This document shows, piece by piece, positions 42,672 through 45,317 of a DNA stretch of 64,000 nucleotides (position 1 is the stretch's first letter; each line of letters begins with the position of its first letter). The notes beneath the pieces were generated by a model. It was not told the DNA's origin, did no database searches, and worked only from the letters and a program-made list of their open reading frames with translations. Source of the DNA: Klebsiella phage LPKP23. The position numbers and the translations under genes are program-made. The DNA is taken from sequence record PV112478.1. One strand, 5' to 3'.

Positions 42672-45317
42672 ATGAGTGACTTCGGGAATAAGATCAGTGA
42701 ATTAAACAGTTTGACTAGCGGGAATATGGCAGGAGAGTTACCGCTAAGTCTGACGTTATCTAGCGGTACTTTGGCAACGAATAAGATCACATTGAGCCAG
42801 GTTCGGGATCTTTTTGATTTTGACCATGCCTTTGAGACAGTGGAGGAAGGGATTGCTGCAACGGTAGAAAACCAACTCTTCTACGTTTATGTCGACAGTA
42901 ACAAATTATCGGTTAATGAGTATATCAGAACAAACATCGGCGCAAATGCGGTTATCGGTAATAGCGGCACGAAGAAAACCATTTATATCCCGGAACTTTT
43001 GAAACATGTCAAAGTACAGGTGGATAGTTTTGCCGCATTGCGGGAGTTCAAACCATGGTGGGAAGGTCAGGTAGTTTACTTGAAAGGGTACTATTCTGAT
43101 GGGGTGACTGGCGGCGGGGATTTTGTCGGGCATTTAGGTACCGCCACTGATGATGGTGGGATCACTGCTGCCGGTAACGGATTTTACTGGCAACGGTATA
43201 ATAGCGAAAACATTGTAGATGCTCAATGGTTCGGCGTTATCGCTGACGGCGGAGACAGAGGAAATAATATCGACAAAGCGCTCAATTTCATTTCTGTTCG
43301 TGGCGGAGAATTAAAATTTCCCAATGGCGAAATAAATTGGGGTACACTCAGAAAGGTATTTAACTATTCTGCCAATTTGAAACCGTTTACTATATCTGGT
43401 AACGGAGACAGTACGGTCTTTACATTTGATGATGTTGCACCCCCTGTATTACAAGCCGGCGCAAACTGGGTAAAAGAACCTCCTTTAATTTCCTTTATAG
43501 GCGTTAACGGAAATCAGTTTATCCCTAAAGTGGTCCTCAAAAACTTTTCGATGGATTATTCTCGCCAAAAAAACAAAGGCGGGACTGATTTGGCAACTTT
43601 AGGGACAACTCATCCTACTCCATACTCTCTCGGGGTTTGGGGGATTTATTTCTTCTACGCCGATAGCCCAACGATTGAAAATGTAACGTTAAATAACATC
43701 TATGGTGACGGGATAATTGTCAGGAAGTCGTTTGAGCCGACAGTAAAGAGTTGCCAGTTCTATAATGTCTCCGCTGGAAATATCATTGCCAGAACCGACG
43801 GTAATATGGCTTCGGATTCTAACGGCGGTGCTATTTTCTTTTGGGCCTGTGTTGGGGGACTTATTGATAATGTCACGGCATGGAATCAACGGACGTATCA
43901 AGTTCACGTTAATTCAACAGACAACGGCACAGATGTTTATAACACGTTATGCGGTTACATTGGTATTTGGACAGAATACCCGTGGGATCAAAATATGACT
44001 AGTGCCGCGCCAGAGACAGCGCCACCAAGAATGACTTCTATAATCTCGGCGGGTAACTTGACGAGTAATTGGGACAACGAAGCCAAAGGTTGCACTATCC
44101 AAAATTGTACTGTATATGGATACACCATTGGAATTAAATCGGAAGGATTTAGTGAAACAAACATTGTTCACAACATGGTTCTTAATTGTTATCTTCCTAT
44201 TTTCCCGGCTAGTACTCGCGCGACAGTAGCTGATAATTTTACAGATATGCTCTACTGCGATAATAGAACATGTCCACAAGGCGGCTATCAAAGTATTCGC
44301 GGTCATCTCGTGTGCCATAACTACAGTACCGTTGACGATGGCGCTCGTAGGGGAGTTGAATTCAGGGGTAATAAATGCTACTGTGTATCATACCCTGCTT
44401 TCAGAAGTAACCGGTCAGGGTCAATGTTCGTCGGGAATATGTTCAGATTTTCCCGAGGCTCGGCATTTGCAATTGATGCGACTATTAGTACATTGGTTAA
44501 GGGCGTTATTATTAAAGATAATACCTTCTTCTTTGATAGTACAATCAGCAGTACAGTGACTTCTAATATCGCTTACCACGATGGACTTGTATTCAGCGGT
44601 AATAGGTTTGTCAATAAATCGAACTCGTTGGTTACGATTGCATTCAGGAATAGCTCGAAAAATGTGAAAGTAGAAAATAACTTTTTCGAGGGTTGGTTTT
44701 TCGTAGCATTACAATGCACGGGCATTTTCGATAAGAACATTATGGATGTTCAGAATCAACCTATCGCTAATAATTATCATTTAGGTAATGTTTTCCAGGC
44801 TACGGCGAGAGCGGTAATATCAAGGAACGAATTCAGGATTAACTCTTCTGCAACCAGCTCACAAATTGTAGTTTCCTCAGATAATAGTGTATTTGAGCGG
44901 AACACTATTCATGTACAAAATACGGGAACGCCGACATTGAATGGTTTGGTATCTTCTGAGTCTGCTGGCGCAAACCAAATCTTTGATGGTAATTTAGTGA
45001 CGCAAAACCCGTTTAATACCGCTTTATTCTACCTGAATAGCCCACATGCCCCGACCTTTATTGGAAACGTCAATAGCGGTAATCTGATCTATATTTTTGG
45101 TACCACTATTTATTCTCCTATTACGCTCGAGCGTAATAAATGCACAGGGTTATTTACCACCCTGGCGACAGAAAAAAATACAGGTGCTAACCTTTCGTCT
45201 AAAGTGACAGCTTATGTTGGAATGAAGATGTATTACATTCTCCCTAATGCTAACGGAGCAGAAGGGGAAATATATACAGCACAAGGATGGAAAACGTTTG
45301 GTAATATAGCCGCGTAA
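42672..45317 (+). CDS. tailspike with pectate-lyase-like right-handed beta-helix (probable polysaccharide depolymerase), ~881 aa
   Basis: AQWFGVIADGGDRGNNIDKALNFI (GDGxTDDTxAIQ-like), repetitive N.T/V.N beta-helix rungs; start taken at ATG 42672 with GAAAGG SD (ORF opens at 42654). Confidence 0.65.
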   Translation: MSDFGNKISELNSLTSGNMAGELPLSLTLSSGTLATNKITLSQVRDLFDFDHAFETVEEGIAATVENQLFYVYVDSNKLSVNEYIRTNIGANAVIGNSGTKKTIYIPELLKHVKVQVDSFAALREFKPWWEGQVVYLKGYYSDGVTGGGDFVGHLGTATDDGGITAAGNGFYWQRYNSENIVDAQWFGVIADGGDRGNNIDKALNFISVRGGELKFPNGEINWGTLRKVFNYSANLKPFTISGNGDSTVFTFDDVAPPVLQAGANWVKEPPLISFIGVNGNQFIPKVVLKNFSMDYSRQKNKGGTDLATLGTTHPTPYSLGVWGIYFFYADSPTIENVTLNNIYGDGIIVRKSFEPTVKSCQFYNVSAGNIIARTDGNMASDSNGGAIFFWACVGGLIDNVTAWNQRTYQVHVNSTDNGTDVYNTLCGYIGIWTEYPWDQNMTSAAPETAPPRMTSIISAGNLTSNWDNEAKGCTIQNCTVYGYTIGIKSEGFSETNIVHNMVLNCYLPIFPASTRATVADNFTDMLYCDNRTCPQGGYQSIRGHLVCHNYSTVDDGARRGVEFRGNKCYCVSYPAFRSNRSGSMFVGNMFRFSRGSAFAIDATISTLVKGVIIKDNTFFFDSTISSTVTSNIAYHDGLVFSGNRFVNKSNSLVTIAFRNSSKNVKVENNFFEGWFFVALQCTGIFDKNIMDVQNQPIANNYHLGNVFQATARAVISRNEFRINSSATSSQIVVSSDNSVFERNTIHVQNTGTPTLNGLVSSESAGANQIFDGNLVTQNPFNTALFYLNSPHAPTFIGNVNSGNLIYIFGTTIYSPITLERNKCTGLFTTLATEKNTGANLSSKVTAYVGMKMYYILPNANGAEGEIYTAQGWKTFGNIAA

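Follow-up and report, generated by a model that had tools for sequence, protein, structure and literature searches.

The 881-aa tailspike gene of Klebsiella phage LPKP23 (sequence record PV112478.1) raises the question of whether it is a host-range cassette recently acquired from an AT-richer donor, as an earlier note on this DNA had proposed, or an old component of the phage. We analyzed a stretch of 64,000 nucleotides (here referred to as the window), in which the gene occupies positions 42672–45317 of the plus strand. The window belongs to a Klebsiella pneumoniae jumbo myophage of approximately 300 kb which is Siatvirus-like and related to phiKp24. Genomes nearly identical to it encode a nuclear-shell protein, PhuZ tubulin and a multisubunit RNA polymerase. 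The isolation host of every close relative was Klebsiella pneumoniae, in line with the encapsulated enterobacterial host that had been predicted. A search of the literature gave no specific results for MJ359, Siatvirus or KpXa_1.

The gene is a genuine ORF which ends at 45317 from either of two possible starts, at 42654 and 42672. The start had been considered ambiguous between them, but the analysis clearly points to 42672. A ribosome-binding site, AAGGT (42660–42664), is located 7 nt 5' of this start. Furthermore, an upstream alignment of eight phages showed that the start at 42672 is kept in every relative and that in phiKp24 the ATG corresponding to 42654 lies outside the reading frame.

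Within a run of minus-strand genes from 37351 to 49659 the spike is the sole gene on the plus strand, and a terminator adjoins it, as the earlier note had described. It forms its own transcription unit, orientated opposite to its neighbours and closed by a strong hairpin terminator directly after the stop codon. This intrinsic terminator (45320–45349, plus strand) consists of a perfect 13-bp stem with a 4-nt loop followed by the T-run TTATTTTCTT, and lies between the spike and a convergent minus-strand gene. Hairpins in the corresponding position are found in relatives, among which three different stem sequences occur. Upstream, the divergent intergenic region (42538–42671, plus strand) contains blocks conserved with phiKp24 (caatagRgtgatataggtRtcaaa... 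and tttcctatgac), which are candidate promoter elements of a phage RNA polymerase. A scan for sigma-70 promoters around the gene was uninformative (8 sites vs 8.1 expected) and addresses the wrong polymerase for such phages. The upstream block TTTCCTATGAC was rejected as a repeated promoter motif, as its 30 matches with at most two mismatches did not differ significantly from the expected 20.9 ± 4.8.

Two orthologues were found in related phages. The first, gp358 of vB_kp_MJ359, annotated as 'tail EPS depolymerase' (XFC50159.1), is syntenic and shares 99.5% amino acid and 99.1% nucleotide identity; the four substitutions are all located in the junction module described below. The second is gp168 of phiKp24 (vB_KpM_FBKp24; YP_010298805.1 / QQV91997.1) with 788 of 881 identical residues (89%), no gaps and 79% nucleotide identity, the equal length being in keeping with a common orthologous group. 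The flanks match those of gp168 as well: upstream lie genes for thymidine kinase and a DprA-like protein, downstream two small ORFs and the PhoH gene, and each of them is encoded on the strand opposite to the spike. Locus, orientation, domain plan, low GC3 and terminator position are thus common to both phages. However, phiKp24 belongs to the genus Maaswegvirus, whereas the backbone of LPKP23 is Siatvirus-like, and its terminator has another stem sequence. In addition, phiKp24 carries an extra upstream gene for a 95-aa membrane protein (gp167), where the window has only an ORF of 26 codons. Centimanus, another Maaswegvirus-like phage, had no full match at the spike locus.

The activity of the orthologue is known from the literature. 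In 2026 gp168 was shown to degrade the KL134 capsule, with activity on the KL134 strain INF149 (DepoCatalog). The same catalogue lists it as KL134-specific and as a 'classical depolymerase, short C-domain' with domains at residues 1–192, 193–826 and 827–881. Fourteen putative depolymerases have been described for phiKp24, gp168 being among those with a short docking N-terminus, and activity was confirmed for 11 of the 14. The gene under study is therefore already known in kind: it is an ordinary, catalogued capsule-degrading tailspike of a Klebsiella jumbo phage. Very probably it is one of approximately 12 receptor-binding tailspikes of the virion, built from anchor, junction, beta-helix and C-domain, orthologous to gp168 and representing an old allele that can be swapped.

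The domain plan begins with a lineage-specific anchor for attachment to the virion (42672–42989, plus strand, codons 1–106), which is unexchanged among close relatives. Residues 1–91 are identical to those of KpLz-2_45, and nucleotide homology to relatives extends through the anchor as far as 42991. As in a modular attachment part, residues 1–106 are conserved with relatives in which the remaining protein is unrelated, and database homologues match either the N-terminal or the C-terminal part only. The following junction module (42990–43241, plus strand, codons 107–190; SFAALR...GYY..GGGDF...DDGG..AG.G.YW.R) was delimited from the boundaries across database homologues and is flanked by both crossover points. 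It is common to many Klebsiella-phage spikes and present in 6 of the 12 receptor-binding proteins (RBPs) of MJ359. In a PDB sequence search it matched residues 177–281 of DpK2 and Depo32 (7LZJ, 7VYV; E 3e-14) as well as WceF (6TGF). The right-handed parallel beta-helix, presumably the catalytic domain, spans 43242–45149 (plus strand, codons 191–826) according to Pfam PF13229, AF2, Foldseek and the limits given for gp168. The short C-terminal domain (45150–45314, plus strand, codons 827–881) was delimited after gp168 in the DepoCatalog supplement. Its pLDDT in the AF2 model ranged from approximately 67 to 93 in blocks of 10 residues, with 67 found in the last, partial block (residue 881).

Several results agree with the proposal of a beta-helix depolymerase. 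The Pfam family Beta_helix (PF13229) matched with an E value of 4.5e-10. An AF2 monomer model, the input alignment of which left out the phiKp24 sequence, had a mean pLDDT of 79.9 and displayed a regular ladder of beta-strands at residues ~180–880. The best Foldseek matches were all tailspike depolymerases or beta-helix glycosidases; a probability of 1.00 was obtained for Fri1 gp49, Depo32, CBA120 TSP2, WceF and APK14 gp49, and TSP3 was a structural neighbour as well. Their low TM-scores (0.14–0.30) indicate the fold class only, and the catalytic mechanism is therefore without support from any specific solved enzyme. The search of PDB sequences matched the junction module alone, with the beta-helix unmatched and no close solved homologue. 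The 881-aa protein is a right-handed beta-helix tailspike.

That this beta-helix could belong to a non-enzymatic adhesin or fibre is highly improbable, even though catalytic residues are unassigned and Foldseek also returns non-enzymatic beta-helix proteins such as PfbA (rank 45). The recombinant, 89% identical orthologue was active as a depolymerase on KL134, and the nearest structural neighbours are all active depolymerases. Moreover, 18 homologues, the most distant with 23% identity, all retain a set of acidic and basic residues, among them D382, E435, E491, K302, R407, K489 and R543, which are candidate catalytic residues. By analogy with gp168 the tailspike most likely strips a KL134-type capsule and would in this way give the phage access to the cell surface; since about 10% of the residues differ from gp168, KL134 specificity is an extrapolation for the LPKP23 protein.

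Compared with solved enzymes, the spike shares with DpK2 and Depo32 the modular plan of anchor, junction, beta-helix and C-domain, the junction alignment and the beta-helix fold. In contrast, the beta-helix has no detectable sequence similarity to these two K2-specific proteins and the TM-scores are low. The same module boundaries serve domain swapping in Klebsiella-phage spikes across podo-, myo- and jumbo phages. As in Ackermannviridae phage CBA120 (TSP1–4) and phage G7C, one virion carries several spikes of distinct glycan specificity, which dock through N-terminal modules; a docking model for the phiKp24 spikes is available from the literature. Unlike in CBA120 and G7C, two spike genes of LPKP23 are located far from the main RBP cluster, alone on the opposite strand and amid genes of nucleotide metabolism. 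In addition, Pfam and PHROGs searches detected no T4gp10-like docking domain in the 881-aa protein.

The second of these genes starts at 63571, and its first 143 codons (63571–64000, plus strand) are contained in the window. It is preceded by an AGGAG ribosome-binding site and matches tail-spike PHROGs. A junction similar to that of the first spike had been noticed here, and indeed the two junction motifs align over 60 aa with 48% identity (E 4e-11). One match to TTTCCTATGAC is located at 63522, upstream of this gene. Over the 143 codons the second spike is 100% identical to that of KpXa_1, where the full gene encodes 751 aa and has its own hairpin terminator. MJ359 gp328 was rejected as the counterpart, as the N-terminal identity to this 852-aa protein is only 56%. 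LPKP23 is a different mosaic from MJ359, with a second spike of the 751-aa KpXa_1/KpLz_1_41 type. The earlier count of at least two spikes is correct as a minimum but a large underestimate, given 12 RBP genes in MJ359 and 14 in phiKp24. A search through the remaining large ORFs in the window revealed no further spikes.

Support for an exchangeable host-range cassette comes from the comparison of close relatives. Between flanks of 92–99% identity these carry unrelated receptor-binding domains of 738/739 aa, beginning at codon 107 or ~174 and ending with the stop codon. In KpXa_1, KpLz-2_45, KpLz_1_41 and KpYy_2_45 no nucleotide homology was found to the exchanged cassette (42992–45315, plus strand; delimited by blastn breakpoints and junction alignments), and in KpZh_1 the non-homologous stretch runs from 43196 to ~45340. 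Accordingly, the left blastn breakpoint is at 42991 or 43195 and the right one between 45316 and 45349. Three to four unrelated alleles were distinguished at the locus, which behaves as a hypervariable slot: phages that are otherwise nearly identical exchange their receptor-binding parts here. The earlier note had named SFAxLR as the start of the junction sequence; the main crossover lies 13 codons upstream of this motif, between TIYIP and ELLKH (codon 106/107).

In public data the same anchor is joined to at least 11 further unrelated C-termini, and the same beta-helix to T7-type, P22-type and other N-termini. KpHz_2 carries a homologue with 63% identity inside a non-syntenic RBP cluster. Homologous recombination would explain such exchanges: one event within the conserved anchor-coding 5' arm, with a crossover at codon 106/107 or after the junction module, and another within a 3' arm formed by the stop codon, the terminator and the downstream genes. 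Through both events combined, co-circulating phages would come to carry different receptor-binding parts. The anchor (aa 1–106) would dock the spike onto the branched fibre apparatus, and the beta-helix (aa 191–826) would bind and cleave the capsular polysaccharide. Apart from the terminator stem, no short flank repeats suggesting site-specific insertion were found.

Does the base composition mark this cassette as a recent import? The proposed AT-richness and poor codon adaptation are present, although weakly. The gene has a GC content of 0.421 compared with 0.452 for the window, which places it in the lowest 6.5% of stretches of the same length (about -1.4 SD). Its GC3 is 0.411, whereas 0.514 would be expected from the amino acid content, and a self-referenced CAI-like index is 0.747 vs 0.796 ± 0.033. 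When the 17 genes with 280 aa or more are compared, the spike is lowest in both the GC3 residual and this index; in the full set of 85 ORFs it ranks fifth lowest on the former and ninth lowest on the latter. Amino acid composition was rejected as the source, since the residue-expected GC is 0.464 compared with the observed 0.421.

A discrete island, however, was not found. The stretch with the lowest GC (43261–45907) overruns the 3' boundary into two downstream non-spike genes with a GC of 0.39, and the region at 55.5–58.1 kb is equally AT-rich. Total GC is 0.421 in both the never-swapped 5' part and the swapped part. Near the module boundary GC3 falls from 0.49 in the anchor to 0.46 in the junction and 0.39 in the beta-helix; an imported module would look alike. 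Compared with functionally equivalent genes the spike is not unusual: the 12 RBP genes of MJ359 range from 0.415 to 0.470 in GC and from 0.35 to 0.49 in GC3, all below the typical GC3 of long genes, and the spike lies in the middle of this range. The beta-helix parts of the alternative alleles at the locus have a GC3 of 0.33–0.45. Furthermore, the phiKp24 orthologue has a GC3 of 0.40 despite near-saturated synonymous sites (pS 0.67), which argues for an old signature that has been maintained. Low GC3, found in every allele at the locus, is a long-standing feature shared by the receptor-binding genes of these phages and does not indicate a recent exchange.

An unameliorated cassette recently imported from an AT-richer foreign donor, its AT-rich island marking the insertion, is therefore improbable. 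It would account for the drop in GC3 from the anchor to the beta-helix (~0.51 expected), for the most deviant position among the 17 long genes and for the presence of other domains at the same place in close relatives. But the equally low GC3 of the diverged phiKp24 orthologue, the equal or lower values of the alternative alleles and MJ359 RBP genes and the extension of the AT-rich stretch into non-spike genes all speak against it, as do the absence of a mobility gene among those flanking the locus and a divergence from phiKp24 that continues across the crossover point.

Expression biology, i.e. weak codon selection on a low-copy late structural gene or tuning to phage tRNAs, offers another explanation of the low GC3 and codon usage, which is conceivable but rather doubtful. 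High-copy structural genes of the window such as the tail sheath have a GC3 of 0.58–0.59, and every RBP gene lies below the typical long-gene value. The spike is also 1.5–3.4-fold richer in ATA, TTA, AGA, CAA and GGA, codons for which the ~98% identical MJ359 genome has annotated tRNAs, and podovirus homologues follow the GC3 of their own backbones. The anchor, however, has a normal GC3 (0.49) on the same mRNA, which an effect on the whole gene leaves unexplained.

The age of the allele was judged by its divergence from phiKp24, the single outgroup genome. This phage has the spike at the same locus, with a pS of 0.67 compared with 0.58–0.88 in neighbouring backbone genes and without any jump in divergence where the crossover lies. 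An allele common to another genus at backbone-level divergence is likelier ancestral at the locus than newly acquired. Along the gene pS declines, with 0.78 at the 5' end and 0.45 at the 3' end; an exchange of the 3' half between the genera may therefore postdate the split of the backbones. Judged from these alignments, the allele is more likely old, ancestral at the locus and common to the genus Maaswegvirus than newly imported; within the population it has been reshuffled recently, without a foreign source.

Traces of such reshuffling are seen in the comparison with MJ359. A tract from 43524 to 46945, which takes in the greater part of the cassette as well as three genes downstream of it, differs at only 5 of 3422 bp, with ~3.5% divergence on either side, and may be read as the footprint of recent recombination or of shared ancestry. 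At the same time the second spike is entirely of the KpXa_1 type, where MJ359 has a different one. It is less likely that the lineage originally had another allele and recently regained a gp168-type cassette by homologous recombination with a jumbo phage of MJ359-like or Maaswegvirus-like type infecting the same cell. In large parts of the 64 kb the backbone is nearer to KpXa_1 (99.1–99.5%) than to MJ359 (91–98%), yet the allele is that of MJ359; the 3.4-kb tract between diverged flanks and the drop in pS toward the 3' end also fit. On the other hand, the 5' part of the cassette (42992–43523) is ~5% diverged from MJ359, and a single donor tract of MJ359 type would thus leave the cassette partly uncovered. 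Identity is also patchy throughout the window, which makes the direction of transfer unreadable.

The old, locally reshuffled allele remains our preferred reading. Going further, we tentatively suggest that the spike loci at 42.7 kb and 63.6 kb might be dedicated plug-in slots of nucleus-forming Klebsiella jumbo phages, each with a conserved 5' arm coding for the anchor and a conserved 3' arm of terminator and downstream sequence. Such homology arms would let co-infecting phages shuffle a lasting pool of at least 12 receptor-binding alleles in varying combinations. Low GC3, retained in spite of saturated synonymous divergence, might then be kept by continuing gene flux, the genes being translated with the help of phage tRNAs for ATA, TTA, AGA, CAA and GGA.

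The spike opens no new biological question, and it cautions that mild AT-richness in a spike gene should not be read as a sign of recent transfer. What is gained is a secure annotation: a depolymerase, probably of the KL134 type, from a jumbo phage resembling phiKp24. Additionally, natural cut-and-paste points are now defined at base-pair resolution: after TIYIP, after the junction module at codon ~175–190, and at the stop codon or terminator. The host range of Klebsiella jumbo phages could be engineered at these exchange points.

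The locus was placed by megablast in ~300-kb jumbo phages of Klebsiella pneumoniae, in agreement with the encapsulated enterobacterial host proposed in the earlier note. Identity was 99.1% to vB_kp_MJ359 (MJ359) and 79% to vB_KpM_FBKp24 (phiKp24, Maaswegvirus); KpXa_1, KpLz-2_45 (Siatvirus), KpZh_1, KpLz_1_41 and KpYy_2_45 matched at 92-99% in the flanks only. KpXa_1, KpZh_1, KpLz_1_41, KpYy_2_45, KpHz_2 and others (records MN871445-MN871453) were deposited without annotation as 'Serratia phage ... UNVERIFIED_ORG', KpLz_1_41 as 'UNVERIFIED'. Klebsiella pneumoniae is given as their host, which makes the Serratia names carried by most of the closest relatives misleading. 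The MJ359 genome also codes for PhuZ tubulin, a nuclear-shell protein and split RNA-polymerase beta subunits, and the phage type is phiKZ-like and nucleus-forming. In such phages structural genes are typically scattered along the genome, and a lone spike gene amid nucleotide-metabolism genes is therefore unremarkable.

The first tailspike gene (spike 1) is one long plus-strand ORF from 42654 or 42672 to 45317, which from the MSDFGNK start at 42672 encodes 881 aa. This start, earlier regarded as weak or ambiguous, is preceded by AAGGT at a spacing of 7 nt and is kept in all seven relatives. Only in the Siatvirus-like genomes does the ATG at 42654 share the reading frame; its phiKp24 counterpart lies in another frame, with a stop codon immediately behind it. 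The start, 42672, is unambiguous. Spike 1 is, as described before, the sole plus-strand gene within a minus-strand run (37351-49659) and adjoins a terminator. The hairpin (45320-45349) begins 3 nt past the stop with a perfect 13-bp stem, ACAGAGAGGAGCC-AGAC-GGCTCCTCTCTGT, and together with the following TTATTTTCTT occupies the whole gap to the convergent gene.

Upstream of spike 1 (42565-42650) two intergenic blocks, caatagRgtgatataggtRtcaaaYtaattgga and tttcctatgac, are kept across genera within surroundings of ~70% identity and may represent a phage-RNA-polymerase promoter. A copy of tttcctatgac with two mismatches is located at 63522-63532, upstream of the second tailspike; no significant enrichment of this motif was found across the window. 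An unannotated 26-codon ORF (MSDLLDLLVLVLLGQSNDDSDDDDDE, 42457-42537, minus strand) with an AAGGTGA ribosome-binding site lies between the promoter region and a DprA-like gene (41857-42444, minus strand), and phiKp24 carries an unrelated membrane protein of 95 aa (gp167) at this site. The DprA-like gene is annotated shorter in MJ359 (504 bp vs 588 bp), while gap columns at 41969 indicate extra MJ359 sequence there. The length difference could be a true indel or an artefact, as the MJ359 record begins and ends beside the gene.

The proposed beta-helix depolymerase fold was confirmed. Spike 1 matched Pfam Beta_helix (E 4.5e-10), and its N-terminal 200 residues matched EPS-depolymerase and tail-fibre families of PHROGs. 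Its MJ359 counterpart is annotated as 'tail EPS depolymerase', and the syntenic phiKp24 gene, gp168, is 89% identical across all 881 residues with zero gaps. gp168 is one of 14 putative depolymerase fibres of phiKp24 and is grouped with those whose docking N-terminus is short (PMC9700779). DepoCatalog expressed it from the identical MSDFGNK start and lists it as a KL134-specific 'classical depolymerase, short C-domain' with domain limits 1-192, 193-826 and 827-881 (PMC13385381). The AF2 model built from 18 homologues (mean pLDDT 79.9) showed an unbroken strand ladder from ~180 to 880. Top Foldseek matches in the PDB were exclusively tailspike depolymerases and beta-helix glycosidases (Fri1 gp49, Depo32, GH110B, CBA120 TSP2, WceF), with low TM-scores that establish the fold class alone. 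Sequence similarity to solved structures was limited to residues 93-189, which matched DpK2/Depo32 (residues 177-281) and WceF. A non-enzymatic fibre is very unlikely, given these structural neighbours and the KL134 specificity of gp168. The polar helix residues D382, E435, E491, K302, R407, K489 and R543, invariant among the 18 homologues, are candidate catalytic or binding residues.

Comparison with the relatives bore out the idea of an exchangeable host-range cassette, with unrelated domains placed between near-identical flanks. Nucleotide homology (96-99%) to KpXa_1, KpLz-2_45, KpLz_1_41 and KpYy_2_45 ends at 42991 and restarts at 45315-45349 (45316 for KpXa_1 and KpLz-2_45); for KpZh_1 it ends at 43195 and restarts at 45341. 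The KpLz-2_45 protein is identical to spike 1 over residues 1-91, ~40% identical to ~195 and unrelated beyond. The left crossover lies directly after ...ATTTATATCCC (TIYIP|ELLKH, codon 106/107), 13 codons ahead of the SFAALR motif, and the right one between stop codon and terminator. Allele A (881 aa) is carried by the window, MJ359 and phiKp24, allele B (739 aa) by KpLz-2_45 and KpXa_1, allele B' (739 aa, 82% identical to B) by KpLz_1_41 and KpYy_2_45, and allele C (738 aa) by the KpZh_1 group.

In a collection of 5.8 billion proteins, the anchor of spike 1 (codons 1-106; 64-85% identity) was found with no fewer than 11 other C-termini, all unrelated to one another, and its helix (46-53% identity) with T7-tail-fibre, P22-head-binding and other N-termini. 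Module boundaries in database homologues cluster at residues ~105-117 and ~175-206. The 270-kb phage KpHz_2 has a 63% homologue beginning at the SFAALR motif, within a non-syntenic receptor-binding protein (RBP) cluster.

A hairpin with a T-run directly follows the spike stop in every relative (loci L002, L003, L006-L009). The stems comprise three unrelated sequences (ACAGAGAGGAGCC, AAAGGGTGGGCC and AGAGAGGGTC) and are independent of the cassette alleles, phiKp24 (allele A) and the B' phages having one stem in common. The terminator is conserved in structure and replaced in sequence.

The compositional island with poor codon adaptation was confirmed only in part. Spike 1 has a GC content of 0.421 vs 0.452 for the window (lowest 6.5% of 2646-bp windows). 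Amino-acid content was ruled out as the source, the expected GC being 0.464 (GC3 0.514 expected, 0.411 observed). A self-referenced CAI-like index was 0.747 vs 0.796 +/- 0.033. Spike 1 ranked lowest of the 17 genes encoding 280 aa or more on both GC3 residual and CAI-like index, and fifth and ninth lowest, respectively, among 85 ORFs. However, the deviation, though real, is mild and neither confined nor specific to the gene: the lowest-GC window (43261-45907) takes in two small downstream genes of GC 0.39, and GC is just as low in a further stretch, 55.5-58.1 kb. GC3 declines from 0.49 in the anchor through 0.46 in the junction module to 0.39 in the helix, total GC being 0.421 in swapped and unswapped parts alike.

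Four stretches without a megablast match in KpXa_1 or MJ359 (55343-57046, 54993-55600, 34596-35827 and 25828-26252) represent further variable regions; the second AT-rich minimum (GC 0.407) falls on the one at 55.3-57.0 kb.

The composition had been taken as typical of a recent exchange, and this argument fails. Low helix GC3 was also found in the phiKp24 orthologue (0.40) and the alternative alleles (0.33-0.45), and whole-gene GC3 of all 12 MJ359 RBP genes ranged from 0.35 to 0.49. Homologues of the helix in podoviruses of 52% GC had GC3 values of 0.53-0.62, near their own backbones. ATA, TTA, AGA, CAA and GGA are enriched 1.5-3.4-fold in spike 1 vs other window genes. These A-ending codons are served by tRNAs annotated in the near-identical MJ359 genome, where a cluster (L012 44835-46678; MJ359 record 87835-89678) includes Ile2(CAT), Leu(TAA), Arg(TCT), Gln(TTG) and Gly(TCC).

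The proportion of synonymous differences (pS) between spike 1 and phiKp24 was 0.67, within the range of neighbouring backbone genes (0.58-0.88; PhoH 0.58, DprA-like 0.84), with a dN/dS of 0.04 and no step in nucleotide identity to phiKp24 at the crossover point. The deviation is old and cannot date an exchange. In the simplest reading, allele A was already at the locus in the ancestor common to both genera and was replaced in other Siatvirus-like phages; the window lineage may have retained it or regained it from a relative. Along the gene (42672-45317 vs L002 6218-8863) pS fell steadily, being 0.78 over codons 1-120, 0.45 over codons 781-881 and 0.37 over the final 55 codons. The 3' end may have been converted between the genera more recently, or its codons may be under constraint.

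The predicted second tailspike (spike 2) could be verified. It starts at 63571 behind an AGGAG ribosome-binding site and runs off the window after 143 residues, which match many tail-spike PHROGs. The two spikes have homologous junction modules (48% over 60 aa, E 4e-11), that of spike 2 reading SFAELR...GDFVG...DDG..AAGPGYYWQR. Spike 2 is likewise a lone opposite-strand gene, adjoining dihydrofolate reductase. The region 62000-64000 is 100% identical to KpXa_1, where the full gene (751 aa, GC 0.452) ends at its own hairpin terminator. Helix identity is ~53% to spikes from Klebsiella myophages of 155-159 kb and ~45% to the phage K11 spike. In contrast, MJ359 carries a different protein of 852 aa at this locus (N-terminus 56% identical), and phiKp24 gp196 is a 660-aa K2/K13 enzyme (DepoCatalog, PMC13385381).

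No further spikes are encoded within the 64-kb window, but 'at least two', as stated earlier, is a large undercount for the phage type: in MJ359 ten RBP genes (gp225-230, gp232-235) are clustered and two satellites lie apart, six of the 12 proteins containing the junction module. The multi-capsule range and the encapsulated enterobacterial host were correctly inferred. phiKp24 has 14 RBPs, with activity confirmed for 11 and 14 capsule types covered (DepoCatalog, PMC13385381). Overall, the tailspike had been correctly recognised and its exchangeability rightly proposed. The protein is essentially in GenBank already and, with gp168 characterised experimentally, of a known kind.

Between 43524 and 46945 the window differs from MJ359 at 5 of 3422 positions, vs ~3.5% on either side; elsewhere its backbone is nearer to KpXa_1 (99.1-99.5%) than to MJ359 (91-98%). 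Spike 1 with its 3' flank (42512-46000) is ~99.9% MJ359-like and the spike 2 region 100% KpXa_1-like. No single record in the phage collection combines both spikes. The phage is thus a mosaic, its spike 1 being that of MJ359 and its spike 2 that of KpXa_1 and KpLz_1_41, and the phage population is actively recombining.
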